A stretch of DNA of 64,000 bases from an uncultured Candidatus Saccharibacteria bacterium (GTDB taxonomy: Bacteria > Patescibacteriota > Minisyncoccia > Phycocordibacterales > SBAW01): the NCBI GenBank assembly GCA_964566795.1, contig CAZMIU010000001.1, positions 399,797 through 463,796 of the forward strand. The letters are read 5' to 3'. Below the pieces are notes generated by a model. The model was given only the letters and a program-made list of their open reading frames with translations. It ran no database searches and had not been told where the DNA came from. Positions 1 to 63,950 of the stretch are shown here, piece by piece. Positions within the stretch are counted from its first letter, which is position 1; each line of letters opens with the position of its first letter. A program made the position numbers and the translations under genes.

Positions 1-399
1 CCAGTTCTGAGTCGAGACGTTGTTAGGAGACGCTGCATCTGCAGCACCACTCGCCTGAGAAAGGGCGTACTGGCAGGTTGCACTGAGCGTACCGGTAAGT
101 GCACAGTTGGTACCCGAAGTAGATGGGTCGAGGAACTGCGACATGTCCGGCGTGGTGCAAGTGCTTACGTTAGGGAACCCCGTGCACACAACATCCGTAG
201 CTGGGTCACCATCGGCAAGCGCCATTGCGCGGGCCATCTGCTGGAGAGACGAAACGCGGTTTGCATCGCGACCCTTGCCGCGTGCGCCGTTAAGAGACAC
301 AAGCACTATAGATGCCAAGATACCTATGATGGCGATAACCACCAAGAGCTCGATAAGGGTGAAGCCCTGGGTTACCTTCTTGGAGAACGTTTTATACAT
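1..399 (-). CDS. pilA: Type IV major pilin (prepilin), C-terminus runs off the window edge
   Basis: Minus-strand translation from the ATG at 397-399 gives [33 protein letters not shown]..., the canonical class-III leader (G|FTLIE) plus hydrophobic N-terminal helix. The frame stays open to position 1. It is absent from the ORF track because no stop lies in the window. Confidence 0.85.
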
Positions 400-48638: not shown

Positions 48639-48986
48639 TTACTTCTTCTTGGCGACGTCGGTAGCAGCCTTGGCAGCCTGTGCAGATGCGATCTCGGCCT
48701 CCTTAGCCTTGGTCTCCATCTCCTTTTGCATCTTGCCGCCGTGGCGGACGAACTTCTTGGTGGGAGAGAACTCGCCCAGGCGGTGCCCGACCATGTCCTC
48801 GCTCACCAACACCTCAATGTGCGTCTTGCCGTTGTGTACGCCAAACTTAAACCCGACCATCTCAGGGGCGATCTGGCTGCGGCGGGCCCACGTCTTAATT
48901 GTCTCAGTGGTCTGAGGCTTTTTCCCCTCAATCTTCTTGAGGAGCTTCTCGTCGACGTAGGGTCCTTTTTTAACGCTTCGTGCCAT
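48639..48986 (-). CDS. rpsS: 30S ribosomal protein S19 with a Lys/Ala-rich C-terminal extension
   Basis: Start at [12 protein letters not shown] with the SD AGGGGA. Confidence 0.95.
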
Positions 48987-49143
48987 AAGAAATCCCCTAC
49001 CCGCCGTGGCCAGAGAGCGGCCGGGCCTTGCGGTAGGGATTGGACCCAATGTACAGGAAAGCCTCTGTGGAGTCAAATAGCCTTGTTTTTAGGGCTTGCA
49101 TGGTATAGTTTTGTGCAGGTTCAAGCACCAAGGGAGACGCCCG

Positions 49144-49335
49144 ATGCGCAGCTACACGTTCCGCTACATCAAGGGGAGCTCCGCTCCCTACCAGACGCTG
49201 GAAGCCAGGGATCACCTCGACTTCTACAACAAGCTCAAGGACTTTTTGGGCAATACGCTCCGGCTGATGCCAGGCACTATCAGCTACCAGGAGCGTGGCC
49301 AGGTCGATGACCCTCCCCTCCAGCACGCCGCCTGA
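49144..49335 (+). CDS. Small hypothetical protein (63 aa) encoded antisense within the rplB-rpsS spacer
   Basis: MRSYTFRYIKGSS.. with the SD AAGGGAG 8 nt upstream of the ATG. A strong terminator follows immediately. Confidence 0.45.
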   Translation: MRSYTFRYIKGSSAPYQTLEARDHLDFYNKLKDFLGNTLRLMPGTISYQERGQVDDPPLQHAA

Positions 49336-49356
49336 CACAAGTCGGCCAATACGAAA

Positions 49357-49390
49357 CCGCCCCGGACATTTTGTCCGGGGCGTTTTTCCT
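49357..49390. terminator. Rho-independent terminator hairpin with a T-tract
   Basis: cgccccggaca-tttt-gtccggggcg followed by tttttcctttt. Confidence 0.65.
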
Positions 49391-49394
49391 TTTC

Positions 49395-50243
49395 TTACTT
49401 ACCCGCTCCGCGCTTGCCGACTTTGCGGCGGGACACGATGAGGTAGTTGGAGTACTTCTTGGGGCTGCGGGTCTTCTGGCCCTTGCCGGTCGGCTTGCCC
49501 CAGAGCGACTTGGCGCGCTTAAGGCCCCTGCCCTGGCGACCCTCGCCGCCGCCGTGCGGATGGTCTACCGGGTTCATTGCGGTACCGCGGACAGTCGGGC
49601 GCCTCCCCATCCAGCGCGAGCGGCCAGCTTTGCCGATAGTGCGCAGGTGGTGCTCGTCGTTAGATACCTCGCCGATAGTGGCCCAGCAGGTCTCGGGTAC
49701 CTTGCGTACCTCGGAGGACGGCATCTTGAGGTCTGCATAGCCGCCGTCACGGGCAATAACCTCGATATAGGTACCTGCTGCGCGGCCAAGCTTGCCGCCG
49801 TTGCCGGGCTTGAGCTCTACGTTGTAGACAAATGCGCCGATAGGAACGTTCTTAAGCGGCATGCGGTTGCCCGGTGCTGCCGGAGCAGTTTCGGAGGTCT
49901 CGATAGTCTGGCCCACGGCAACAGACTTAGGCAGGAGGTTGTAGCGGCGCTCGCCGTCGCGGTACACCATGAGCCCGATAAAGCCGGAGCGGTTCGGATC
50001 GTACTCAACAGTCTCTACCTTGGCCGGGATGTGCTTCTGGTAGCCAAAGTCGACATCACGGAAGAGGCGCTTGTGGCCGCCGCCCTTGTGGCGCACCGAG
50101 ATGCGGCCTGCATTGTTGCGGCCCACATCACGCTTAAAGCCCGAGGTAAGCGCCTTATGAGGCTCGGTTGCCGTGACCTTACCCTTAAAGGTAACGGTGG
50201 TCATGTGGCGGCGCGACTTGGTGTATGGCTTATAGGATTTCAT
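49395..50243 (-). CDS. rplB: 50S ribosomal protein L2
   Basis: Family similarity. Confidence 0.95.
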   Translation of the reverse strand: MKSYKPYTKSRRHMTTVTFKGKVTATEPHKALTSGFKRDVGRNNAGRISVRHKGGGHKRLFRDVDFGYQKHIPAKVETVEYDPNRSGFIGLMVYRDGERRYNLLPKSVAVGQTIETSETAPAAPGNRMPLKNVPIGAFVYNVELKPGNGGKLGRAAGTYIEVIARDGGYADLKMPSSEVRKVPETCWATIGEVSNDEHHLRTIGKAGRSRWMGRRPTVRGTAMNPVDHPHGGGEGRQGRGLKRAKSLWGKPTGKGQKTRSPKKYSNYLIVSRRKVGKRGAGK

Positions 50244-51983: not shown

Positions 51984-52415
51984 TTATGCAAGATAGGCAA
52001 GAATAGTGGCCATGCCCATAAGCAGGACCAGGTAGTAGCCCAAGTTGATGGCAAGCGTAATCCGGGTCTTTTTGCCAAACAGGACCTCGTTTAAGAGGAC
52101 CGGCACCATAAACCCGAGCCAGCACCAGGTAGCCCCCATAAGCCCGCCCTCAAGCCCCGAGGTACCCGCGTAGGCGTTGCCAAAGGTGATGACGTGGTGG
52201 AGCACATAGGCCATGACAAGCGCGCCCAGTGCGGTGAGCGCGTAGGTGGCCGCCATGCCACCGCGCTTTGCCATAGCAGCCTCTTTGTCTGCCTCGGTCC
52301 AGCCCATCTCGCGCGACCACAGCCTGCCAAACAAGGGGCCGTACCAGAGTGTGCCCACGACCATAGAAAACACTACACAGCCCGCAAGCGCCCAGTAGTT
52401 TACAAGTACTTCCAT
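51984..52415 (-). CDS. DUF1761 family membrane protein inserted between rpsJ and rplC
   Basis: Four TM segments with the WYGPLFGRLW motif characteristic of DUF1761. Confidence 0.55.
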   Translation of the reverse strand: MEVLVNYWALAGCVVFSMVVGTLWYGPLFGRLWSREMGWTEADKEAAMAKRGGMAATYALTALGALVMAYVLHHVITFGNAYAGTSGLEGGLMGATWCWLGFMVPVLLNEVLFGKKTRITLAINLGYYLVLLMGMATILAYLA

Positions 52416-52455
52416 ATATAAAGATTACCTAGTACCTCATAAGTATATATACGAA

Positions 52456-52483
52456 AAAGCCCCCATGCATGGGGGCTTTTTCG
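52456..52483. terminator. Bidirectional rho-independent terminator
   Basis: aaaaagccccc-atgcat-gggggcttttt. Confidence 0.7.
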
Positions 52484-52659
52484 TTGTATTTCTTTGCTCG
52501 GCTTACAGGTAATGCCCTGAATTGTATGTCGAGGAAAAAAAGCGACGCCTAGAAGTCGCCCAGAAATAACACTATTTGTTCGCGAACAAACCAATGAACA
52601 CCTTTTTCCTATTCTATCAGCAATTCATGAAGAATCAATTAATCGCGCGTGAAAAAGAA

Positions 52660-52685
52660 AATCCCCTCTCGCGAGGGGATTGTCT
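52660..52685 (-). terminator. Rho-independent terminator immediately after rpsJ
   Basis: Minus strand: aatcccctc-gcga-gaggggatttt followed by ctttttc. Confidence 0.6.
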
Positions 52686-53057
52686 TTAGACCATCTTTAC
52701 ATCGATGGTGACGCCGGAGGGGAGGCTGAGGTTGGTGAGCGCCTCTATCACCTTGGCGTTGGGCTCGAGGATGTCGATCACGCGCTTGTGGACGCGCATC
52801 TCAAACTGCTCGCGTGCGTCCTTGTAGACGAAGGTGGAGCGGTTAACGGTGTACTTCTTGATCTCTGTCGGCAGTGGGATTGGGCCTGCAACCTTTGCGT
52901 CATAGCGCAGGGCGGTGTCCAATATCTGCTTAACACTCGCGTCGAGCACCTTGTGCTCGTATGCGCGCACCTTGATACGCAACCTCTGCACGGGGGCCTC
53001 TGTCTTCTTGGCGCGGGGCACAGCCTTCGCCTTCTTCTCTTTCTTCTCGGTTGCCAT
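52686..53057 (-). CDS. rpsJ: 30S ribosomal protein S10 with a Lys-rich N-terminal extension
   Basis: Family similarity from [12 protein letters not shown] onward. Confidence 0.95.
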
Positions 53058-53200
53058 ATGTGTGTGAGCCTAGTTCTCCCCTTTTCAGAGGTAACCTATG
53101 CCCGATTAGCTAACGCTTACAGATAATAAACGAACACAGGCACTGTAGCATAGAAAAACCCCGCGGTGAAGCGGGGTTTTTCTTTCAAACGTTGGGGTGA

Positions 53201-54394
53201 TTACGCGATTATCTTTGTGACAACGCCTGCACCTACGGTCTTGCCGCCCTCGCGGACTGCAAAGCGGGTCTTGTCCTCGAGTGCCACAGGCGCTACGAGC
53301 TTGACCTTAAAGGTAATGGTGTCGCCCGGCATAACCATCTCAGTACCAGCAGGCAAGGTTACCTCGCCGGTTACGTCCGTAGTGCGGACGTAGAACTGGG
53401 GCTTGTAGCCGGTGAAGAACGGCGTGTGGCGGCCACCCTCCTCCTTGGTGAGGATGTATACCTCGGCCTCAAACTCGGTGTGCGGGGTTACGGAACCCGG
53501 CTTAGCCAAGACCTGGCCGCGGTGGATGTCATCCTTGGCGGTACCGCGCAGGAGGATGCCTGCGTTGTCGCCTGCCTGGCCCTGGTCGAGCTGCTTGTTG
53601 AACATCTCGATACCGGTAACGGTGGTCTTAGTGGTTGGCTGGAGACCTACAATCTCGATATCCTCGCCTACCTTGAGCACGCCGCGCTCGATGCGGCCTG
53701 TCACTACAGTGCCGCGACCCTCGATAGAGAAGATGTCCTCTACCGGCATAAGGAACGGCTTGTCGAGCTCGCGGACCGGGTCTGGGAAGAAGCTGTCCAT
53801 GGTGTTAACGAGCTCCAATACCTTCTGAGACCACTCGTTGCTCAAGTCATTAGACTCGAGCGCCTTGAGGCCGGAACCCTTGATAACCGGAGAACCCTCG
53901 TAGCCCTGCTTGGCCAAAAGCTCCTTGATCTCCTCCTCGACGAGGTCCAAGAGATCCTTGTCCTCAACCATGTCGCACTTGTTGAGGAAGACGATGAGTT
54001 TCGGCACGCCAACCTGGCGGGCCAAGAGCACGTGCTCGCGGGTCTGGGGCATAAGGCCGTCAGTTGCCGCAACTACAAGCACTGCGCCGTCCATCTGGGC
54101 AGCACCGGTGATCATGTTCTTGATGTAGTCGGCGTGACCCGGAGCGTCGATGTGTGCGTAGTGACGCTTAGGGGTCTCGTACTCCGAGTGGTGGAGCGCG
54201 ATGGTGATACCGCGAGCCTTCTCCTCCGGAGCGTTGTCGATACCGTCAACGGCCTCGACGCGTGCGCCGTAACCCTGGCTCTTTGCCATGTCGAGCGTGT
54301 GGAGGATCGACGCGGTGAGCGTAGTCTTGCCGTGGTCAACGTGACCGATGGTGCCCACGTTCATGTGGGGCTTAGACCTTTCGAAATTTGCCAT
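53201..54394 (-). CDS. tuf: Elongation factor Tu
   Basis: [10 protein letters not shown] and DCPGHADY motifs. Confidence 0.98.
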
Positions 54395-54479
54395 AAATAA
54401 AACTAACTAATTAATAACAACTTATATACACAGCGCACTCCAAAAGCACAGGAAAGTAGCCCCATGTGCATTGCGGTTC

Positions 54480-54508
54480 AATATATAGCAGAAGGTACAC
54501 AGGTGCAA
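54480..54508 (-). promoter_or_regulatory. Candidate sigma-70 promoter for tuf (-35 TTGCAC, 17-nt spacer, -10 TATATT)
   Basis: On the minus strand the -35 is at 54503-54508 and the -10 at 54480-54485, about 85 nt upstream of the tuf ATG. Confidence 0.3.
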
Positions 54509-54557
54509 GCCCCGCAATGGTGCCTGCGGGGCGCACCGCTTATGTATTACTTATGTA

Positions 54558-56591
54558 TTAATAGAGTCCGGCCTGGAAGAGGAACTCGGAGAAGGCGTCT
54601 ACTATCATGTAGACCGGGGCCATCTCAACCGCTGCAAGCGCATCGGTCACTTTGCTCATGGTCTCGTAGAAACTTATAGGCAGGTATGGGAGCGCTGCCG
54701 TCAGCTCAGAGACAGGCACCATGGAGGTTGAGCCGGGCACGGTCACCGTCTTGGTGATTACCGGGGTCGGCGACGCGCATACCGCAGTCGCAGGGCATGA
54801 GGTTGGAGGGAGCACCTTGATGGTGTAGGTGCCGGCTGTTTTGTACGGATAGCTGCGGGTAAATACCGGCTGGCAGCTGCCGATACCTATGGGGATATTG
54901 GCACTAACGCCGTCACCATAGTCGAGCGTATAGGTCTTACCATCGCAGCCCTGGCCCGTGCTGCCCTGGATACTTACCCAAAGCGAGCCAGCAGAGGTTG
55001 CCACCGTGAGTGTGGGCTGTGTTACCGAGGTACCGCCTGTCGAGTCGCTGGGCTTTGAGGGATTAAGGTACACAAAGCCGGAGTCGAGCACGTCGCCCGC
55101 CTCGTTGAGTATCGCCACGCTGTAGGTACCCTGGGTAAAGGTGCGCGTGGTGGTGTGTGACCAGCGGCCACTTGTGACCGCGATAGCCGGCGAGTTGTAG
55201 ACAGTCGCCAAATCTTTCAGCATCGTGATGTAGATTTTTGAGATTGTAGCTGAGCCGCCAAAGGTTATCTTGCCGGTGCTGTCTGTTGAGGTAGTGTCGC
55301 GCGATACCTGCCTCTCCTGTGAGTTGCGGTCCATAACCTGCATAGAGAACACCGCGTTGCTCAGGCCCTGGGAGAGCACCGTACCGTCTGCCTTGTAGGC
55401 CACAACCTTGGCCTGGTACTTGTTGCCGGCGGGCACGCGTGCATACCCGCGGGTTGTTGAGTCCTGATTGCTGGTGCCTACGTTTACGCAGTTGTTGGTT
55501 TCAGGCAAAGGATATGAAACGCCTGATGAACCGTTGTAAAGGAAGGAGCATGCGTACGAGCCGGCAGGCATCTTGTAGTTGCGCCACCCAATAAGCATGC
55601 TGGTGCCAAAGTGGCCGTCGCGCGTAATGTCGTACGGACCTTTGCTATTTTTAGGGTACGTTACAACAACTGTCGGGACTGTATATACGGGCTCAGAAGA
55701 CGAATTATCCTCCTCCCCCTCATCTTCGTCCTCATCCTGGTCATTGCTGCAGGATGCGGTGTTCGAGTTGTCATTGCGGTTGCACTCTAAGCTTGCAGCC
55801 AGAACATTAACTGTCTTGAATGCCACCATCTCACCCTTGGCGCCATCTTTATGCAACGCTGCGACATAGGTACCCGGGGTCGAGTAGGTGTGGGTCGCGT
55901 TCACTTCCCCATATCCGCTGATTGAACCGTCGCCAAAGCTGATGTAGGCACCCGCGCTAAGTGCAGAGCCACTGCCTTTAAACGAAACCGTAAGGGGTGC
56001 CTTGCCCGATGTGGGGCTGGCAGTAAAAGTGACTTCACTCGTATTGCTGGAGGAATTCCCGATGATGAGAATGCCCTTAGCGAGAGCGACTTTGGATGCG
56101 TAATCAAATACTACTACCCTCATGGTAGCGGCGGCGTTGATACCAAATTGTGCAGACCAGCGGCCGTTTTTTACATCGGACTTCTCGATAAAGATGCCGT
56201 CCTTGCCGAGCTGGCCGGCAATGGTGTTGTAGTCCGTAATGGACGCGTAGGTCTCATAGTTTGTAGGCACGAGCACGACTGCGACTTTCTTGGTGTTAGC
56301 CGCGGTACCTGTGATATAAAACTTGCCCAAGCCAGTAGTGATCGACTCCTGGTCCAATGACGCACTGGATACGTTCGGATTGGTGGTGCCCGAACCGCCA
56401 CCGAGGACGGACTTAACCGTGTTGATGGTTGCCTGCGGCACATCAAACGCCTCGAGTAGGTTTATGACCGCGTTAATCTGCGCCGAGGTCAGCTGCCCTG
56501 CCGCCCGCGCCGGTTGTGCGCTTACGGCAACAAGTACGAGCGAGATGATAAGGGCGGCGAGGAGTGAGCGGATGGAGCGTGCAGCAGTCAT
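54558..56591 (-). CDS. Secreted multi-domain protein with PKD domain(s), an acidic linker and an N-terminal module shared with the next gene
   Basis: Signal MTAARSIRSLLAALIISLVLVAVSAQPARA. The PKD-like block is EVTFTASPTSGKAPLTVSFKGSGS..ISFGDGSISGYGEVNATHTYSTPGTYVAAL. The acidic stretch is DQDEDEDEGEEDNSS. Confidence 0.6.
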   Translation of the reverse strand: MTAARSIRSLLAALIISLVLVAVSAQPARAAGQLTSAQINAVINLLEAFDVPQATINTVKSVLGGGSGTTNPNVSSASLDQESITTGLGKFYITGTAANTKKVAVVLVPTNYETYASITDYNTIAGQLGKDGIFIEKSDVKNGRWSAQFGINAAATMRVVVFDYASKVALAKGILIIGNSSSNTSEVTFTASPTSGKAPLTVSFKGSGSALSAGAYISFGDGSISGYGEVNATHTYSTPGTYVAALHKDGAKGEMVAFKTVNVLAASLECNRNDNSNTASCSNDQDEDEDEGEEDNSSSEPVYTVPTVVVTYPKNSKGPYDITRDGHFGTSMLIGWRNYKMPAGSYACSFLYNGSSGVSYPLPETNNCVNVGTSNQDSTTRGYARVPAGNKYQAKVVAYKADGTVLSQGLSNAVFSMQVMDRNSQERQVSRDTTSTDSTGKITFGGSATISKIYITMLKDLATVYNSPAIAVTSGRWSHTTTRTFTQGTYSVAILNEAGDVLDSGFVYLNPSKPSDSTGGTSVTQPTLTVATSAGSLWVSIQGSTGQGCDGKTYTLDYGDGVSANIPIGIGSCQPVFTRSYPYKTAGTYTIKVLPPTSCPATAVCASPTPVITKTVTVPGSTSMVPVSELTAALPYLPISFYETMSKVTDALAAVEMAPVYMIVDAFSEFLFQAGLY

Positions 56592-56609
56592 ACGAGTTAC
56601 AAATTGAAA

Positions 56610-58163
56610 TTAAAATCCAAATAATGCGGCATAGGCCGAGAGCACGCCAGCGAGCGACCAGTTTATCTCTATGATCTGGTCTGCAACAATGTTTATAGAT
56701 GCAGTCATAGACTCCATCGGGATCATGGCGGCGGCGGCCATCATCTGGCCTCCGTCAAACAGTGCCGACGAGATGCCAAAATTGCGCGGCCATGAGGTTA
56801 TCGACTGCAGGTTGATGCCCGCAGCATCGAGCTGCGATTGCATGCTAGAGAGATCTGCCTTGCTAAACCCAAAGTTGGTTATGTGCTTGAGGAGCACGTC
56901 CGGGTTGGCTGCCGATGTAAGCTGGTAGCCGTTTGCATCTACAAGCGCGAGCACGTAGTTGACGCCGACACCCGGGAGTATCTCCTTGTAGAAGGTAAAG
57001 TTGCCCGCGTGCGCAAGTACCGTGGTGTTGGCGCGGTCTGCCGGGCGGGTGGCGCCCGATGCCAGGTAGGCGGTGGAGCCGCTATTGTACATGGCACTGG
57101 TAAGTGCGCGCGCCGTTGCGAGCGGATTTGCGGAGGACATTATGACGCCCCAATCGCGCATGTCGACGTTGGACCCTATGACGCCGTAGAGCATGCTCGA
57201 GGCGATAGACGCGTCGGTCTTGGCCGCGGCGGCAAACTGCGCCGTGTTGGGCTTGGACGCAGACATGCTGTTTGTACCTGTGTTGGTAGTTGTGTTGGTG
57301 TTTGTGTTCGTCTCAGTTGTGGTCTCGGTCTGTGTTGCCGGCATCTCGCCGCCGGTGGTGATGAGACCCGGTATAAAACCGCGGGGCCACGAAGTTGCCG
57401 ATTGAAGGTTGATACCCTTTCCATCAAGCTGGGCCTGGAGCACAGCCAACTCTGCCTTGTTAAACCCAAAGTTTAGGACCAGCTTCTGGAGCGTGTCGGA
57501 GTTGGCTGCCGATGTAAGCTGGTAGCCGTTCTTGTCTACAAGCGCGAGCACGTAGTTGATGATGCTGCCCGGCAAGATTTCCTTGTAGAGCGTAAAGTTG
57601 CCATAGCTGGCAAGCACTGAGGTGTTGGCGCGGTCCTGGGGGCGGGTGGCGCCCGATGCCAAATATGCCTTAGAGCCGCTGTTGTACATTGCCGCAGTTG
57701 CCGCACGGGCGGCAGCAAGCGGGTTAGACGACGCCATGATGGCCGTCCAGTCGCGCACATCCAGGTTGGACCCTATGACGCCGTAGAGCATGCTCGAGGC
57801 GGTAGACGCGTCGGTCTTGGCCGCGGCGGCAAACTGCGCCGTGTTGGGCTTGGACGATGAGATTGTCTGGCTTTGCTGTGTCTGCGTGCTCGCCGGAGTT
57901 TCTGGCTCTACGGACGGTGCCACAGGCATCGTCGCTGCAGGAGCGGTGCCGCCGTTTAAAATGGTTTTGACGTTGGCGATGGTTGCCGCATCAACGCCGA
58001 AGGCGGACAAAAGCCCTATAACGCCGCTTACCTGGGTTGAGGTAAGCCCGGCCGCCTGGGCGGGGGTCGGGGTTACCACAAGAGCGAGGGTGAGCACAAA
58101 CATGACAACGCCTACAACCAGGTGTAGTGCGATGGAGCGGAGGGCTATAGGGCGGGCGTGCAT
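56610..58163 (-). CDS. Secreted protein with a perfect ~200-aa internal tandem duplication and the shared N-terminal module
   Basis: Signal, then AGLTSTQVSGVIGLLSAFGVDAATIANVKTILNGG. The unit SKPNTAQFAAAAKTDAS..LYGVIGSN.D.RDW..IM.S.NPLA.AR..T.AMYNSGS.AYLASGATRP.DRANT.VLA..GNFT.YKEILPG...NYVLALVD.NGYQLTSAAN.D.L repeats twice. Confidence 0.55.
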   Translation of the reverse strand: MHARPIALRSIALHLVVGVVMFVLTLALVVTPTPAQAAGLTSTQVSGVIGLLSAFGVDAATIANVKTILNGGTAPAATMPVAPSVEPETPASTQTQQSQTISSSKPNTAQFAAAAKTDASTASSMLYGVIGSNLDVRDWTAIMASSNPLAAARAATAAMYNSGSKAYLASGATRPQDRANTSVLASYGNFTLYKEILPGSIINYVLALVDKNGYQLTSAANSDTLQKLVLNFGFNKAELAVLQAQLDGKGINLQSATSWPRGFIPGLITTGGEMPATQTETTTETNTNTNTTTNTGTNSMSASKPNTAQFAAAAKTDASIASSMLYGVIGSNVDMRDWGVIMSSANPLATARALTSAMYNSGSTAYLASGATRPADRANTTVLAHAGNFTFYKEILPGVGVNYVLALVDANGYQLTSAANPDVLLKHITNFGFSKADLSSMQSQLDAAGINLQSITSWPRNFGISSALFDGGQMMAAAAMIPMESMTASINIVADQIIEINWSLAGVLSAYAALFGF

Positions 58164-58325
58164 AGGGACTAGTTATTTCTAAAAACGTATAAGTGGCTGC
58201 AGAACAAGCAGGAGCGGAGCGACAAAACAAGAAAGGGCCCCAACGCAAATGCGTTGGTGCCCTGTATGAGACTCAGTATAGTCCCTCTTGCCTACCCCAC
58301 AAGTAGGGGGTGTGTATAAGTGTCG

Positions 58326-59465
58326 TTAATCCTCGATGGTAAAGAGGTGGCTCTTGTCATCGTCCAGCCTCTCGCCGGTGCCATTGTCGTCCTCGTACAG
58401 GCTCGCCTTGATGTAGTACTCGCCGTCAAGGTCATAGCCGCACAAGCCGTTAGGGTACTGGAGGGTGCAGTAGTCGCCCTTCTCAGGCACATCCCACTCA
58501 TACTCCTCCTCATCGGCATCAACGATGGCTATAGTGCCAACGCGGTCGTCGTCCTCGTCATAAAGCTCCAGGACCACGGAGGCGTCGTTAGGCTCGTCGG
58601 TGACATTCCACTCGATATCAAGGTCATCGCCCTGCTCTACCTCGACATTGGAAGAGGGCGAGGTTACGTCTATAGTGCCGTCCTCATCGTTGTCGTTATC
58701 ATTGTCGTCATCGTCCTCAGTCACGCGGAAGGTGGCCTCATCGCGGTCAAGCTCCTTAACCTCAATGTTCCAGTCGCGGAAGTTGACGTCGTCACCGTCT
58801 TCAAGGATATACGACTGCGAGGGAGCATAGAAGCAGTAGGTGCCCGCCCTGCAGCCTTCGGTTACCGTAATGCGCACGGCCTGGGGCTCCTGATTGTAGT
58901 AATAGCCATAGCCGTACTGGCTCATAACCACCTGGTTAAGCGTGATAGTGAGGTCTTCATTGCGCAGCTCGCCTGTCTCGCCCACATCAAGAGAGAAGTC
59001 ACGGTCAAGACGGAAGGTCGTGGTGCGGGTAGTGGGGTTGGTCGGATAGCCCGGGTTATAGCTGCCGCCGCATACGCGTGCGATTGCCTGGCGGGTCAGA
59101 GGACCAACCCCGCCCGTTGCCGGGTATACGCCGTTTTCCTGCTGGAAGCGGGTCACGTAGTAGCTCGTGAGCTGGCCATAGTAGCCGCCCGTGAGGCGCG
59201 TGTCGCTATAGCGGGAGCGCAAAAAGTTCTGCAGTGAGCTTACCTGGCCGCCGGTGGTGTAGTCGCTGGAGCCCAGGGTGAGGTTGTAGCTCAGAGCCGG
59301 GCAGCCGTAGGAGGTACCACCATAGTACTGGTTGGTGTACTGCGGCTGGGTGTACTGCGGGTAGTAGTAGCTCGGGTTGTAGGTCTGAGCCATTGCCGGA
59401 GCGGCCACAAAGAGACCCGCGAGGGCTGCGAGGCCAAATACAAAGGTTTTCATACGATTTTGCAT
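58326..59465 (-). CDS. Secreted protein with a PG_binding_1 (peptidoglycan-binding) domain and a highly acidic C-terminal domain
   Basis: Signal MKTFVFGLAALAGLFVAAPAMA; a Tyr/Gln-rich stretch; GGQVSSLQNFLRS..GGYYGQLTSYYVTRFQQENGVYPATGGVGPLTRQAIA; D/E-rich blocks. Confidence 0.6.
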   Translation of the reverse strand: MQNRMKTFVFGLAALAGLFVAAPAMAQTYNPSYYYPQYTQPQYTNQYYGGTSYGCPALSYNLTLGSSDYTTGGQVSSLQNFLRSRYSDTRLTGGYYGQLTSYYVTRFQQENGVYPATGGVGPLTRQAIARVCGGSYNPGYPTNPTTRTTTFRLDRDFSLDVGETGELRNEDLTITLNQVVMSQYGYGYYYNQEPQAVRITVTEGCRAGTYCFYAPSQSYILEDGDDVNFRDWNIEVKELDRDEATFRVTEDDDDNDNDNDEDGTIDVTSPSSNVEVEQGDDLDIEWNVTDEPNDASVVLELYDEDDDRVGTIAIVDADEEEYEWDVPEKGDYCTLQYPNGLCGYDLDGEYYIKASLYEDDNGTGERLDDDKSHLFTIED

Positions 59466-59588
59466 TGATAAATAAGGCTAAAATGGGCCCTTGATAATTA
59501 GGTTCGCGCTTACAATACCACAAGACGCGCAAAGCGCAACTGTATTACAAAAGCCCGGGGTTTCCCCCGGGCTTTGTCGTGATGTGGC

Positions 59589-60221
59589 TCAATTGGGTCG
59601 GCCTGTTGCTTGTTCTGCCGAAGGAGGGGGCGTAAGTAGAGCATACCCCCGAAACACGCTCCTCGTGCACTCCTGCTCGGTAAGTGGGCGGCCAGCGTCG
59701 CAAGTATCTCCAATGATTGAGAATATCAGGGACATTGCCTTTGAACACTGGTTCATTGCATTACCCAGACTCTCCTTATATTCCTCGTCGCAAAGAGAGC
59801 TGTAAAAGACCGGAACGACATACTGCAGTACAGCAATCTTCTTGTCATACGCAGGGATGACATATCCAGCCAGAGTATCCTCGGCGCGCTCGAGCGCTTT
59901 TTTTATCGAGCGGTCGACCGTGCGCGAGAAAGCCTCAAATTTGGCATTCGTCAGAAACTTCTGCTGGTGCTGCATCCCGACTATGACTAATTCGTCGCTT
60001 AGTCTGTGCTCAATACGGGAGCAGAAGCTTGTTCCGTCGTTTGCTTTCATCAAAAACTCTATTCTCTGCGTCGACTCCCGGAGGATAGTGCAGACGTCAT
60101 TGTTTTCGATAAGACCTTGTCGGGCGACAGCTAGCGGGCGACTGGAAGTTCCTACCATGGCTCTGCCTTTCTTTTGTGACAACTTCTGTATCCATTCAAG
60201 CACCGGCACGCACAAATGCAA
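59589..60221 (-). CDS. Hypothetical cytoplasmic protein in a locally lower-GC segment
   Basis: 210-aa ORF with noticeably lower GC than its flanks; flanked by hairpin terminators. Confidence 0.4.
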   Translation of the reverse strand: MHLCVPVLEWIQKLSQKKGRAMVGTSSRPLAVARQGLIENNDVCTILRESTQRIEFLMKANDGTSFCSRIEHRLSDELVIVGMQHQQKFLTNAKFEAFSRTVDRSIKKALERAEDTLAGYVIPAYDKKIAVLQYVVPVFYSSLCDEEYKESLGNAMNQCSKAMSLIFSIIGDTCDAGRPLTEQECTRSVFRGYALLTPPPSAEQATGRPN

Positions 60222-60242
60222 GCCGGTTGTTATAACGAAAAA

Positions 60243-60272
60243 ACGCCGCCCCCGCGTGGGGCGGCGTTTTTC
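60243..60272. terminator. Bidirectional rho-independent terminator after fusA
   Basis: acgccgcccc-cgcgt-ggggcggcgttttt. Confidence 0.7.
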
Positions 60273-60285
60273 TTACGTCTTTGGA

Positions 60286-62436
60286 TTACTTGCGTGCGGC
60301 AACGATGGTTGCGGCTACCTGCGGAGGCACCACCTCGTAGTGGTCGAACTCCATGGTAAACGACGCGCGGCCCTCAGACATTGAGCGCAGCGCTGTAGTG
60401 TAGCCGAACATCTCCGAAAGAGGCACCTTGGCACGGATTGCACGCGCGAGCCCGCGCTCCTCCATGCCCTCAATCTGGCCGCGCTTGGAGTTAAGGGAGC
60501 CGGTTACGTCACCCATGAACTTCTCGGGGGTAACGACCTCCACTTTCATAATCGGCTCCAGAAGTACAGGCTTTGCCTTGGTCATTGCATCCTGGAAGCC
60601 CATAGATGCGGCGATTTTAAAGGCAATCTCGGATGAGTCCACATCGTGGTAGGAACCGTCATAGAGCTCGATGGAGATGTCGACCATCTTAAAGCCGGCA
60701 ACATAGCCGCGCTCCATAGCCTCGCGCACGCCGTCCTCTACCGGACCGATAAACTCGTTGGGGACCACGCCGCCCTTGATGTTGTTGATAAACTCGAAGT
60801 GGTCCTCGCGGGTAACGTTCTTAGCCTGCTTCTTGTCCTCGTTCACGGGCTCAAGCGGCTTTACGCGCAGGCGCACATGGCCGTACTGGCCCTTGCCGCC
60901 TGTCTGCTTGATGTACTTGCCCTCGCCCTCTGCCGGTGCCTGGATAGTCTCGCGGTAGGCAACCTGGGGCTTGCCGGTGTTGGCCTCGACGCCAAACTCG
61001 CGCTTCATGCGGTCTACCAAGATCTCGAGGTGGAGCTCACCCATGCCCGAGATTAGGGTCTCGTTGGTCTCGGTATCGGTGGTCACACGGAAGGTTGGGT
61101 CCTCGTCTGCAAGCTTCTTCATGGCCATACCCATCTTCTCCTGGTCGGCCTTGGTCTTGGGCTCGATGCGCATCGAGATAACCGGCTCGGGTACGGTAAT
61201 GCCCTCGAGGATAATGGGGTTGGTCTCGTCTGAGAGCGTGTGGCCGGTCTTAGCCGACTTCAGCCCCACGGCTGCGGCAATCTCGCCTGCAAACACCTTT
61301 TTTACCTCTTCGCGCTTGTCTGCCTGGAGGCGCACGATGCGGCCCAGGCGCTCCTTCTCACCCGTGGAAGAGTTGATGATGTAGGAACCTGCCTCCACAA
61401 CGCCCGAGTACACACGGAAGAATGTCAGCTGGCCCACAAACGGGTCTGCCTGGAGCTTAAAGGCGAGCGCGGAGAACGGCTCGTCGTCTGCGGCCTGGCG
61501 CATGATAGGGTCGCCGGTCTTGGGGTTGGTGCCGGTGATTGGCGGCATGTCTACCGGTGAGGGTAGGTAGTCGACAACAGCGTCAAGCACCAATTGCACG
61601 CCGCGGTTCTTGAGTGCCGAGCCGGTGTATACGGGGAAAATCTTGTTGTTGATGACTGCTTTGCGGAGGGTCTTTTTGAGATCCTCAAGCGACGGCTCCT
61701 TGCCGTCGAGGTATGCGGTCATGAGGTCATCGTCGTTCTCAACGATCTTCTCGATAAGCTCTGCGCGGTACTTCTTGGCATCCTCGAGCATGTCTGCCGG
61801 GATGTCGTAGGTAGACACGATCTCACCCATGGCGCCCTCAAACTTGTAGGCCTTCATGGTAAGGAGGTCGACAACGCCGTCGAACTCGGCCTCAGCACCA
61901 ATGGGGAGCTGCATGCGCACTGCGCGCGGGGTAAGGCGGTCGAGGATGGAGGCGTACGACTTCTCAAACGATGCACCCATGCGGTCCATCTTGTTTATAA
62001 AGCAGATGCGCGGCACGTTGGCCTCGTCTGCATAGCGCCAGTTGGTCTCAGACTGTGGCTCTACACCGGCAACGCCGTCAAACACCACTACTGCGCCGTC
62101 GAGCACGCGCATGGAGCGCTTAACCTCTACGGTAAAGTCGATGTGGCCGGGGGTGTCGATAACGTTGAAGCGGAATTTCTTGGATGCGTCCTTTTTGTCC
62201 GGCTCGTCGGTCTTGGACCAGAAGCAGGTGATAGCCGCCGCGGTAATGGTGATGCCGCGCTCGCGCTCCTGCTCCATCCAGTCAGTCGTGGTCTGGCCGT
62301 CGTGCACCTCGCCTATCTTGTGCTGGGAACCGGTGTAGTACAGCACGCGCTCAGACGTGGTGGTCTTGCCGGCATCGATATGGGCGATGATGCCAAAGTT
62401 GCGGATCTTCTCGAGCGGGTAATCTCTAGTGGGCAT
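60286..62436 (-). CDS. fusA: Elongation factor G
   Basis: Start at [27 protein letters not shown] (716 aa). The ORF-track entry extends a further 300 aa upstream through an open frame and was trimmed. Confidence 0.97.
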
Positions 62437-62539
62437 GAGCTTATAGTCTAAGTAATAATTAGATTCAAAAATCCGCCGGTAGGCGGGCTTGGCACTATAG
62501 TACTGCGTCCGGGGCAAAAAGCAATATACTAAGTTCATC

Positions 62540-62980
62540 ATGGACAACATAACCGAACCCCAATTTGAGTGCTGCCACTGCTCTTTAGAGGTCACACCCA
62601 ACCCCTCCATGGGCACGATGCACCGCAACCACTGCAACCACTGTTTGTGGAGTAAGCACGTGGACCAGACCCCGGGCGACCGCGCCTCCACCTGTGGCGG
62701 ATGCATGGAGCCCATAGGTGTGACGCTCAAGCACGAGGGCCAGGACAAGTACGGCAAAGAGAGGCTGGGCGACGTGATGCTCGCACACCGCTGCACGCAA
62801 TGCGGACACATAAACATTAACCGCATAGCAGCCGACGACCCGGAAGACCTGATAGTAAAAGTGTTTGATATATCAAGCACCCTGCCCCGAGAGACGCTCG
62901 ACGGGCTCGCAAAACAAAACATCGCGCTCCTAACCGATAAAAAACTCCTAAAGGAAAAGCTTTTTGGAAAGAGTAAATAA
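62540..62980 (+). CDS. RNHCP-domain Cys/His-rich (zinc-binding) protein, antisense to and inside the rpsG-fusA spacer
   Basis: ECCHC...HRNHCNHC...CGGC...CTQCGH cysteine/histidine clusters including the eponymous RNHC motif; followed by a terminator. Confidence 0.55.
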
Positions 62981-62988
62981 ATACAAAA

Positions 62989-63012
62989 ACGCCGCCCGGA
63001 TGGGCGGCATTC
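62989..63012 (+). terminator. Rho-independent terminator after the RNHCP gene
   Basis: cgccgccc-ggat-gggcggc followed by attcttttatattttt. Confidence 0.6.
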
Positions 63013-63049
63013 TTTTATATTTTTGGGATTACCAGGCGACCAATTGGGG

Positions 63050-63520
63050 TTACCAGGCGAAGTGTGCAAAAGCCTTGTTAGCCTCGGCCATGCGGTGGGT
63101 GTCCTCTTTCTTCTTAAAGGCAAAGCCCTCGTTGTTGGCAGCTGCCATAAGCTCGGTAGCCAACTTCTCGGCCATAGGGCGGCCCTTGGCAGAGCGTGCT
63201 GCCTGGAGTATCCAGCGGAAGGCCATGGCCTGCTTGCGCTCGGGGCGCACCTCGCGGGGCACCTGGTAGTTGGCACCGCCCACGCGGCGCGAGCGGATCT
63301 CCATCGCAGGAGAAACGTTGCGGATAGCGGTCTCAAAGAGCTCTACCGGGTTCTCTACCTTGGCCTTCTCCTTCATGATGTCAAAGGCATCGTATACAAC
63401 CTTGCGTGCGGTCGACTTCTTGCCGTCCCACATAACAGAGTTGATAAACTTCTCCACGCGGACAGAGCCGAACTTGATGTCCGGACCTGCCATGTTGCGA
63501 TTTTTAACGGGGCGACGCAT
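63050..63520 (-). CDS. rpsG: 30S ribosomal protein S7
   Basis: Family similarity. Confidence 0.97.
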
Positions 63521-63542
63521 ATCAGTAAATTAAAATATCAAA

Positions 63543-63950
63543 TTATTTCGGGCGCTTTGCACCATAGCGCGAGCGGGAGCGGCGGCGCTTCTCGAGGCCC
63601 GCTGCATCGAGCTTGCCGCGCACTACCTGGTAGCGCACGTTGATGTCCTTCACGCGGCCGGCGCGGACAATTACCACGGAGTGCTCCTGGAGGTTGTGGC
63701 CCTCGCCCGGGATGTAGGCGGTAATCTCCTGGCCATTGGTGAGGCGCACGCGGGCGATCTTGCGGATAGCGGAGTTAGGCTTGCGGGGGGTCGTGGTGGT
63801 CACCTTGGTGCAGACACCGCGCTTGAAAGGGCTCGGGTAGAAGACAGGCTTGTTCTTAAGCACGTTAAAACCGCGCGCGAGTGCGGGCGACTTGGTCTTG
63901 TTGGGGCGCTCTTTGCGGCCCTTGCGGATGAGTTGTGAGAGACGTGCCAT
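63543..63950 (-). CDS. rpsL: 30S ribosomal protein S12
   Basis: PNSAIRK and related S12 motifs. Confidence 0.97.

Follow-up and report, generated by a model that had tools for sequence, protein, structure and literature searches.

Few gene pairs in prokaryotes are as conserved as rplB and rpsS. In the 64,000-nucleotide stretch analysed here (the window, to which all positions refer), which comes from a tiny-genome bacterium of the CPR/Parcubacteria, the coordinates of the flanking genes show this L2–S19 junction to be interrupted by a gap of 408 nt (48987–49394). The rplB product is 100% identical to a database L2 with the Pfam domains Ribosomal_L2_N and Ribosomal_L2_C, and the S19 of this genome has the Ala/Lys-rich C-terminal tail typical of Parcubacteria, for which it has been described (PMC9297842). 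All of the features that the initial annotation had placed in the gap from the letters of the DNA (an antisense 63-aa ORF with the Shine-Dalgarno sequence AAGGGAG, a strong terminator behind that ORF, and a long imperfect inverted repeat upstream of rpsS) were found, with coordinates shifted by one base. Together with the promoters described below, the features are:

49395–50243, minus strand: rplB (ribosomal protein L2) of the upstream unit, with its stop codon at 49395–49397 (from the ORF list)
49358–49387, both strands: bidirectional intrinsic-terminator-like hairpin, common to the small gene (plus) and rplB (minus)
49144–49335, plus strand: small protein gene, 63 aa, MRSYTFRYIKGSSAPYQTLEARDHLDFYNKLKDFLGNTLRLMPGTISYQERGQVDDPPLQHAA (homologues, position, dN/dS, open frame, AlphaFold model, GC3)
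49130–49136, plus strand: Shine-Dalgarno sequence AAGGGAG, 7 nt before the small-gene ATG
49081–49109, plus strand: putative small-gene promoter, with an extended -10 element TGgTATAGT (49101–49109) and a weak -35-like cCTTGt (49081–49088)
49048–49076, minus strand: predicted rpsS promoter, with -35 TTGACT (49076–49071), a 17-nt spacer and -10 TACATT (49053–49048)
48995–49038, minus strand: structured rpsS 5' leader, an imperfect stem-loop (covariation and invariance)
48639–48986, minus strand: rpsS (ribosomal protein S19, 115 aa), first gene of the downstream unit (from the ORF list)

Against Rfam, the window contains only a tmRNA and two tRNAs, with no rRNA, and the gap itself gave only sub-threshold matches, to terminator-like sRNAs. 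The ribosomal-protein cluster of this genome has other insertions: four genes lie between fusA and tuf, and a DUF1761 gene lies between S10 and L3.

The small gene and its relatives

The small ORF runs from an ATG at 49144 to a TGA at 49333–49335. An ORF of 63 codons in 408 nt at 56% GC is within chance, and one of 113 codons is open on the opposite strand; we regard the small ORF as real because it is conserved in other genomes, not on the strength of the window by itself. Homologues of the peptide were sought with a profile, a check that the initial annotation had suggested together with comparative synteny; in 1.84 billion representatives, 28 matches reached E ≤ 1e-3. One of them, P0008, was rejected: it is a type IX secretion PKD/SprB protein of 4267 aa in which a short YSLDYVDGSGSP motif had produced a repeat artefact. 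That leaves about 27 small proteins; in a set of 15 billion proteins clustered at 50% identity, the family makes up about 27 clusters. Within this family G11, P15 and A21 are invariant and a V-x-D-P-P motif lies near the C terminus. The window's member contains the stretches SYTFR, GSSAPYQTLEAR and LMPGTISYQER.

The synteny is strict: in all 11 distinct members whose context was read, the small gene adjoins rpsS, antisense to it and divergent from it, and this adjacency is kept even in locus L008, where a threonine synthase gene lies between the small gene and L2. The small-gene frame is the only one free of stops in all 11 loci; its third codon positions are the most variable, its indels are in frame, and dN/dS is 0.2–0.5. 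GGAG or GGAGG stands at the site of the Shine-Dalgarno sequence in six relatives (L006, L008, L009, L012, L013 and L017), and the GC3 of 0.83 is like that of the neighbouring highly expressed genes. The small protein is only 30–50% identical between relatives whose S19 keeps 88–93%, and the gene is retained across hosts whose L2 proteins are only 77–84% identical. It is tandemly duplicated in L101, and L016, L056 and L090 have a probable divergent subfamily (hhalign E 8.5e-5) in this slot. The gene is nonetheless dispensable, since it is missing from one close relative (L018) and replaced by unrelated antisense ORFs in two others (L019 and L020).

On this comparative evidence the small ORF, whose conservation in relatives the initial annotation had left in question, is a genuine conserved gene with its own predicted ribosome-binding site and terminator. 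The family it defines is undescribed and, as judged from the homologues detected, found only in an Adlerbacteria-like clade of Parcubacteria (CPR). Pfam (at E ≤ 1, 28 members), NCBIfam, PHROGs and PADLOC gave no match for any family member, a PDB sequence search with the small protein gave none either, and no relatives turned up in viral contigs in two pattern scans. The family alignment (A3) is too divergent for a pattern scan of metagenomes, and S19 was used there as the anchor instead. Predicted isoelectric points range from 4.7 to 10.2 (median 6.7), with many acidic members and no conserved charge pattern. We also considered a RiPP precursor, with a conserved N-domain and a variable tail, and rejected it: the neighbourhood encodes no modifying enzymes, and the DPP motif of the window's member is followed by just 5 residues.

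Promoters, shared hairpin and rpsS leader

A consensus scan found a sigma70-type promoter directly upstream of rpsS, absent from the initial annotation, with a predicted transcription start at about 49041. Its layout, including the fixed 17-nt spacer, recurs in 14 of the 14 lineages compared, and in 74 of 77 related metagenome loci the 200 nt upstream of rpsS contain the looser pattern TTGnnn (at least 5/6), 16–18 nt, TAnnnT; the controls gave 5 of 77 for the opposite strand and 0 of 77 for the coding sequence. The motif is also found in L018, which has neither the inserted gene nor the terminator. These counts indicate that rpsS has a conserved sigma70-type promoter of its own across the wider group. 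In many related contigs no rplB lies within 1.5 kb upstream of rpsS, which for that reason appears to start a unit of its own.

The putative promoter of the small gene lies back to back with that of rpsS, their -35 regions about 10 bp apart, and would start transcription at about 49116. Its -35 element is poor. Within alignment A1 the TGGTATAGT block does not vary, although the sequence around it does, and equivalents of the form TGG(C/G/T)ATAtT or TATAG occur in seven further loci (L008, L012, L013, L009, L100, L101 and L021).

Between the small gene and rplB, the two arms of the hairpin (49358–49368 and 49372–49382) form an 11-bp stem with 9 G-C pairs around a TTT loop. On the plus strand it is followed by TTTTT (49383–49387) and folds at -24.5 kcal/mol (z = -6.4, with 0 of 200 shuffles folding as well), which bears out, as a predicted element, the strong terminator noted after the small ORF. 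On the minus strand the fold is -26.4 kcal/mol (z -5.2) with a weaker U-tract, GTTTCGTATT. This is the strongest terminator-like site in the 19.5 kb of the ribosomal-protein cluster, and at the equivalent position nine relatives (L001, L006, L008, L009, L012, L013, L016, L017 and L019) have a GC hairpin between an A run and a T run (A4 ahead of it, T4–7 behind). The hairpin of the window lies 12 nt past the rplB stop and may be active on the rplB strand, so that rplB transcription probably ends there, although some read-through from rplB is possible because the U-tract on that strand is weak here (GGUUUCGUAUU).

The inverted repeat upstream of rpsS escaped an exact-seed repeat finder and is present at 48995–49038 as a covarying stem-loop in the predicted 5' leader. 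Its folding energy, -23.6 kcal/mol, is not unusual (z = -1.3), and we hold the structure to be real because of covariation across relatives rather than energy: of the cells in its 16 pairs, 95.8% are paired, both sides have changed in 6 pairs (6–7 distinct sequences), none of 500 shuffles reaches the score, and slid controls are 33–46% paired. The window, L001 and L006 have identical leaders, although their synonymous sites differ by 15–20%. The stem-loop has a conserved unpaired GCAAGG and an apical region CGCUCUCUG, and is followed by a U-rich GAUUUCUU and the start codon; a possible rpsS Shine-Dalgarno sequence, AGGGGA (48998–48993), lies partly within the 3' arm. Sequestration of this site by the hairpin was rejected as a general mechanism: L012 and L021 have their ribosome-binding site beyond the hairpin, and L016 and L017 have none.

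Only a narrow clade has this structure. A covariance model found copies only upstream of rpsS in its six source sequences, with none elsewhere in 315 kb or in the rest of the window, and Rfam gave nothing for 48995–49038, whether at the gathering threshold or at E ≤ 10. In more distant relatives the place is taken by other short GC hairpins, a U-rich stretch follows the leader hairpin in every lineage, and in L008, L013, L019 and L101 hairpin and U-rich tract together resemble a short intrinsic terminator. We regard the covarying rpsS leader as a candidate new cis-regulatory RNA.

The junction as a probable operon boundary

The reading that we favour, and consider probable, is that the L2–S19 spacer is a compact conserved module, both regulatory and coding, which makes an operon boundary with re-initiation and in which the small gene is real. 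Transcription of rplB would end at the shared hairpin, and the local promoter would start transcription anew for rpsS, rplV, rpsC and the genes beyond. Since about 60 bp of DNA serve both promoters, the small gene would be co-expressed with the strong rpsS promoter; the sharing would also lock the gene pair together in evolution. In this clade of Parcubacteria an antisense gene with predicted signals of its own stably separates rplB from rpsS, and the rpsS promoter predicted across the wider group changes how ribosomal-protein operons in CPR genomes are to be read.

The alternative that survives best would make the small protein unrelated to transcription or translation: one of several lineage-specific passengers at an insertion hot spot between L2 and S19 in Parcubacteria, kept beside rpsS only because its promoter overlaps that of rpsS, so that rearrangement would damage an essential promoter. 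The spacer between L2 and S19 varies from 56 to 1405 nt across related loci and holds unrelated genes, and the slot occupied by different antisense ORFs in L019 and L020 is empty in L018. The fast evolution of the small protein relative to S19 fits a passenger, as do the fusA–tuf and S10–L3 insertions elsewhere in the cluster. On the other side, purifying selection and retention across such divergent L2 proteins argue for a useful function, and the tandem duplication and the probable subfamily in the same slot also speak against a mere passenger. This account is silent on what the protein does and overlaps the operon-boundary reading on all that is shown; we give it real weight, while thinking it somewhat the less probable way for the matter to turn out.

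The initial annotation had suggested that both the long hairpin and the convergent gene could attenuate the S10 operon between L2 and S19; spelled out as a rival model, hairpins and antisense gene would act on a single S10 transcript, through both partial termination and transcriptional interference, and so tune how much of the upstream ribosomal proteins is made relative to the downstream ones. Partial termination is conceivable at the shared hairpin, given its position just after the rplB stop and its weak U-tract on the rplB strand, and the U-rich tracts behind the leader, terminator-like in four loci, make attenuation conceivable for transcripts that reach rpsS or start upstream of it. The long hairpin, however, sits downstream of the conserved promoter TTGACT-17-TACATT, which is the wrong place for attenuating read-through from L2. 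The predicted small-gene transcript overlaps the coding sequence of neither rplB nor rpsS, the convergent units sharing only the terminator hairpin. The conserved promoter lying between terminator and rpsS (the 74 loci include L018) makes the junction better described as an operon boundary than as an attenuator within one operon, and the many contigs in which rpsS has no nearby upstream rplB point the same way. We therefore consider attenuation of a single transcript quite unlikely, and neither part of the proposal is supported in the form in which it was put.

Placement within the S10–spc cluster could also mean that the small protein is a lineage-specific ribosomal or ribosome-associated protein, placed there for co-expression. 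We think this very unlikely: the protein is not basic, many members being acidic, its gene lies on the opposite strand with a patchy distribution and is dispensable in close relatives, and it evolves far faster than ribosomal proteins do. Nor does it fit an eL20/LX-like ribosomal protein, which would be basic, RNA-binding and universally retained in the lineage, given the median pI of 6.7 and the loci without the gene (L018, L019 and L020).

That the ORF is spurious and the conserved thing a non-coding RNA or DNA element (an sRNA, say, or the overlapping 113-codon operon-strand ORF at 48997–49338) is already largely refuted and hardly credible: the window and L001 are indeed 95–99% similar here as against 80–92% in the flanking genes, but L006, only 79% identical in the ORF, lacks this similarity, which therefore looks like a local recombination tract and not RNA constraint, while the minus-strand ORF has stops in 8 of 11 loci, the plus frame is always open and behaves as coding sequence in its third positions, dN/dS and indels, the profile recognises members at 30–40% identity, and structure prediction is confident.

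Predicted fold of the small protein and comparison with known systems

AlphaFold predicts a beta-beta-alpha-beta-beta fold for the 63-aa protein with high confidence (pLDDT 90.3). In a Foldseek search of the PDB, the RNA polymerase subunit epsilon/YkzG ranks first (4njc, TM 0.55/0.69), followed by epsilon in B. subtilis polymerase complexes (7ckq_H, 8xa6_E) and Gp2 (4lk0_M); among viral models, the best match carries the label "RNA polymerase inhibitor." These matches are statistically weak (E 0.01–0.1, none ≤ 0.001). The beta-beta-alpha-beta fold is simple and common to unrelated small proteins, among them phi29 p56, T4 Dmd, AcrIE2 and archaeal eL20/LX. By hhalign, alignment A3 showed no sequence homology to T7 Gp2 (probability 0.1%; the Gp2 sequence was checked against PDB 2wnm) or to two epsilon sequences (probability 0.5%).

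Genes for RNA polymerase subunits are commonly found in ribosomal-protein clusters, and to our knowledge epsilon and Gp2 are the only known RNA polymerase binders of their type. From the predicted model we tentatively suggest that the small protein may be an accessory protein that binds RNA polymerase or the transcription machinery, though the odds are against it. The fuller proposal, which we likewise hold to be unlikely, is that the family is an unrecognised RNA polymerase accessory subunit or regulator, an analogue or very remote homologue of epsilon/Gp2, co-expressed with ribosomal proteins from the shared bidirectional promoter region, and that the rpsS leader is, separately, a new ribosomal-protein operator or attenuator RNA. 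We know of very few recognisable regulators in CPR bacteria, and for that reason a polymerase accessory protein wired to a ribosomal-protein promoter would, if true, be a useful lead. The family has no annotation anywhere, yet has a confidently predicted fold resembling epsilon/Gp2; overall we see the importance of these findings as moderate, since they are lineage-restricted and are predictions from sequence and models.

Epsilon and Gp2 are structurally related polymerase binders (PMC7722741; bioRxiv 10.1101/2021.06.06.447298). Like epsilon (RpoY/YkzG, PF07288, of Bacilli and Lactobacilli), the small protein is encoded by a chromosomal gene, and is of similar size (epsilon has about 65–70 residues); the compact beta-beta-alpha-beta topology of its model may be that of epsilon, both proteins begin with an M-x-(x)-Y-x-[FV]-x-Y strand, and both are dispensable and lineage-restricted (for epsilon, PMC7722741). 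The small protein differs in matching no Pfam profile, in belonging to Patescibacteria and not Firmicutes, in its gene neighbourhood, and in its V-x-D-P-P tail motif, which epsilon lacks. With T7 Gp2, the phage inhibitor of host RNA polymerase, it shares size and the same predicted compact topology, whereas identity in the structural alignment is 2%, the family lacks the conserved acidic strip and the Arg pair, its charge is variable, and its gene is not phage-borne but chromosomal, in a ribosomal-protein cluster in 11 of 11 contexts.

The rpsS promoter and leader can be compared with internal promoters and operon boundaries of the S10-spc-alpha ribosomal-protein cluster, and with the E. coli S10 leader attenuator, which is controlled by L4. 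As there, a sigma70-type promoter (here predicted) leads into a structured leader with a U-rich end, ahead of a long run of ribosomal-protein genes, and compensatory changes conserve the rpsS leader structure. The promoter and leader described here differ in lying before rpsS, in the middle of the S10 operon by the E. coli layout, and the leader is set apart from described ribosomal-protein leaders in that no Rfam leader family matched it. As for the gene pair, conserved divergently transcribed genes are reportedly a classic regulator–target arrangement, a view that Korbel et al. are said to have put forward in 2004. The small protein departs from such regulators in having no recognisable DNA-binding domain, but small gene and rpsS are arranged like divergent genes whose promoters overlap: their predicted promoters, set back to back, fit into about 60 bp, and the pairing is invariant across the family.

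The antisense gene between rplB and rpsS

The ribosomal-protein cluster of the window lies on the minus strand, and rplB and rpsS (encoding L2 and S19, coordinates from the ORF list) are separated by 408 nt (48987-49394), the size given by the initial annotation. The other elements described there, an opposite-strand ORF with its ribosome-binding site and terminator hairpin and an inverted repeat upstream of rpsS, are also all present:

49395-50243, minus strand: rplB
49358-49382, plus strand: GC-rich hairpin of 11 bp followed by TTTTT, 3′ of the small ORF
49144 (ATG) to 49335 (TGA), plus strand: small ORF, 63 aa
49130-49136, plus strand: Shine-Dalgarno sequence AAGGGAG, 5′ of the small ORF
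48995-49038: imperfect inverted repeat, the rpsS leader stem-loop
48639-48986, minus strand: rpsS

The suggested search for homologues bore out the proposal that this ORF is a gene. Two homologues came from a word-indexed search (95% and 69% identity, the latter with a 2-residue in-frame insertion), and a profile run against 1.84 billion representatives (E ≤ 1e-3) gave 28 matches: 27 proteins of 57-139 aa, and P0008, which was rejected as a repeat artefact. The family motif is M-R-x-Y-x-F-x-Y-x-x-G-x-S-x-P-x-x-T-[IL]-E-A-x-[DN]-D-x-[DE]-[FA]-Y-x-x-[LI]-x-x-[FW]-L ... L-V-P-G-[ST]-I ... V-[PA]-[DE]-P-P, with G11, P15 and A21 invariant across the alignment and C-terminal tails that differ among members. 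No member matched Pfam, NCBIfam, PHROGs or PADLOC, and none matched PDB sequences. The dN/dS of the gene is 0.2-0.5, versus 0.04-0.12 in the adjoining S19 gene, and of the six frames its own is the only one free of stops in 11/11 loci; on the operon strand, an ORF of 113 codons is interrupted in 8/11. Its GC3 of 0.83 is similar to that of adjacent highly expressed genes, and it is present once in the window. The small gene is real, conserved and lineage-restricted, and the protein family is undescribed.

Identity of the small protein falls to 30-40% across hosts whose L2 is 77%-97% identical to that of the window. Between the window and L001, a locus from a relative, synonymous sites have diverged by 0.02 in the small gene and by 0.33 in rpsS. 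Over ~700 bp (48900-49600), which take in the small gene and terminator together with the ends of rplB and rpsS, identity between the two is 95-99%, versus 80-92% for the flanking ribosomal-protein genes; a scrambled block at 49080-49106 is the exception. This pattern suggests a recent recombination tract.

The host genome belongs to the Parcubacteria group of the CPR/Patescibacteria. Its cluster has no L30 between S5 and L15, its L2, which matches that of one NCBI assembly at every residue, has as nearest named relatives Candidatus Adlerbacteria (91%), Paceibacterota, Kaiserbacteria (87%) and Nomurabacteria, and its S19 bears an Ala/Lys-rich tail, as reported for Parcubacteria (PMC9297842). 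Elsewhere in the window are a standard tmRNA gene (32180-32554, Rfam 102 bits) that ARAGORN missed, an 803-aa Thr/Ser/Gly-rich ORF without a Pfam match (16550-18961, minus strand) and a tRNA-Ile with anticodon TAT (27294-27366), which is uncommon among bacteria.

Position and distribution

We examined the genomic context of 11 distinct family members.

Family members and the loci (contigs of relatives) that carry them
Window protein: window
P0001: L001-L004
P0002: L005-L006
P0003: L017
P0030: L008
P0027: L009-L011
P0017: L012
P0015: L013-L015
P0028: L100
P0021: L101
Unnamed member: L021

This comparison of synteny, another check proposed initially, found all 11 antisense to the ribosomal-protein genes and directly divergent from rpsS. 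At L008 a threonine synthase gene separates the small gene from L2 and the small gene still adjoins rpsS, and at L101 the gene is present twice in tandem next to rpsS (216-746), the diverged paralogues measuring 76 and 94 aa. Distribution among relatives is patchy: the L2-S19 spacer of L018, from a Kaiserbacteria genome (L2 87%), is just 69 nt, and L019 and L020 have antisense ORFs at this position that are unrelated. At three loci the position is taken by a second group of small antisense ORFs, with the motif M-x-Y-x-L-x-Y-x-Q-x-R-P ... A-x-x-F-L:

L016, 2918-3148
L056, 186-458
L090, 399-632

Their alignment to the family is weak (hhalign probability 60%, E 8.5e-5 over 37 columns) and includes a loop insertion of 11 residues; they are probably a divergent subfamily.

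We also collected 80 metagenome loci anchored on S19 (L020-L099), of which 77 were usable. Where L2 was found upstream, the spacer measured 56-1405 nt and held various unrelated genes, including a sense-strand 134-aa membrane protein (L028, L034, L062) and a 250-aa antisense protein (L056, L071); in 23 loci having the full 1.5 kb upstream of S19, L2 was not within it. Breaks at L2|S19 are general in this group, and the junction is an insertion hot spot across these Parcubacteria-like contigs.

The str/S10 region of the window (51984-63950) is itself heavily interrupted by non-ribosomal genes. Four of them, encoding proteins of 210 aa, 379 aa (with a PG-binding domain), 517 aa (no match) and 677 aa (with a PKD domain), separate fusA (60289-63336) from tuf (53204-54394), and a DUF1761 membrane-protein gene is inserted between S10 and L3. 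The spacer from the S10 gene to the DUF1761 gene (52416-52685) marks another break in the cluster and could encode a small RNA of roughly 75 nt or a leader; it contains:

52660-52681, minus strand: terminator-like hairpin
52638-52611, minus strand: promoter-like TTGATT-16-TAGAAT, with TG upstream
52540-52561, minus strand: terminator-like hairpin
52451-52484, both strands: terminator-like hairpin

Predicted promoters, leader and terminator

When the window is aligned with L001-L003 and L006, the rpsS-proximal stretch shows no change between 48987 and about 49063, and the block 48987-49075 (88 nt) has 3 mismatches in total, versus 15-20% at synonymous sites of the flanking genes. The two divergent promoters predicted here are:

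49076-49071 and 49053-49048, minus strand: rpsS promoter TTGACT, 17 nt, TACATT, inside the conserved block
49101-49109, plus strand: small-gene extended -10, TGgTATAGT, invariant, with a weak -35

The rpsS layout, with its constant 17-nt spacer, recurs in 14/14 lineages compared, including those without the small gene, and the 200 nt ahead of rpsS contain the motif TTGnnn(≥5/6)-16..18-TAnnnT in 74/77 usable metagenome loci (opposite strand, 5/77; inside rpsS, 0/77), at a median of 40 nt from the start codon. These sequence comparisons together show that rpsS has its own conserved promoter throughout the group. The initial annotation proposed attenuation of the S10 operon between L2 and S19, a model that overlooks this promoter. 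Since the -35 regions of rpsS and the small gene are about 10 bp apart, the promoters stand back to back and overlap in some lineages.

Transcription from the rpsS promoter is predicted to start at about 49041, 2-3 nt ahead of the stem-loop (49038-48995). Folding energy by itself is unremarkable (-23.6 kcal/mol, z -1.3). Across six distinct versions (window, L012, L016, L017, L020, L021; L100 was added as a seventh by eye), paired positions covary and the unpaired GCAAGG and CGCUCUCUG are constant: 95.8% of cells are paired, with both sides changed in 6/16 pairs; the covariation score is reached by 0/500 shuffles, and slid controls are 33-46% paired. The leader is thus, on this alignment, a covarying structure. 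Its covariance model, run over 315 kb, matched the six training sequences, all upstream of rpsS, and nothing else there; no Rfam family matches it. Lineages further removed carry another short GC hairpin, equally far from the -10 element, and a U-rich stretch follows the leader hairpin in all lineages. The leader may serve as a 5′-terminal stabiliser, an attenuator or a protein operator; a general role in sequestering the Shine-Dalgarno sequence was rejected on comparison of lineages.

The hairpin at 49358-49382 is the strongest terminator-like site across 19.5 kb of the cluster. Its folding energy is -24.5 kcal/mol (z -6.4) for the plus strand; for the minus strand, where it lies 12 nt past the rplB stop and precedes a weaker U-rich tail, the value is -26.4 kcal/mol (z -5.2). 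Every locus has a GC hairpin 3′ of the small gene, with an A-run ahead and a T-run after. The convergent units are separated by a strong hairpin whose flanks are T-rich on either strand, which fits a shared terminator for rplB and the small gene. The S10 cluster would be split at L2|S19 into two transcription units, and the small gene would form a monocistronic unit of its own, regulated together with the rpsS promoter.

Predicted fold and possible roles of the small protein

AlphaFold2, given the 28-sequence alignment, predicts beta(2-10)-beta(16-21)-alpha(24-35)-beta(40-41)-beta(47-50) with a pLDDT of 90.3; the V-x-D-P-P motif sits in a less ordered tail after the last strand. Foldseek's best match in the PDB is the RNA polymerase epsilon subunit YkzG (4njc; E 0.076, TM 0.55/0.69), ahead of the epsilon chains of B. 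subtilis polymerase complexes (7ckq_H, 8xa6_E) and of the phage T7 inhibitor Gp2 (4lk0_M), and among viral models it is an “RNA polymerase inhibitor” (E 0.0098); no match reached E ≤ 0.001. Epsilon and Gp2 are known to have the same fold, and each binds RNA polymerase (PMC7722741; bioRxiv 10.1101/2021.06.06.447298).

Two readings of the protein seem comparably likely. It may be a passenger whose function is unrelated, fixed in place by promoter overlap; the overlapping promoters would explain why the small gene and rpsS are never separated. The other reading, suggested by the structural matches, is the speculative and rather doubtful one that it binds RNA polymerase as epsilon or Gp2 do. Those matches call for caution: the fold is simple and also found in other small proteins, including eL20/LX, charge varies across the family, profile comparison detected no sequence homology to Gp2 or epsilon, and two pattern scans of viral contigs yielded no relatives. 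The gene offers a testable lead into CPR polymerase biology, though its role is putative and its distribution narrow.

That the antisense small gene at L2|S19 is a real and unusual feature is well supported. Our literature search found no description of the family, the antisense L2|S19 position or the rpsS leader structure. Insertions and internal promoters are already known in ribosomal-protein clusters; the novelty here lies in the protein family, in its constant antisense placement at this junction and in the structure of the rpsS leader.
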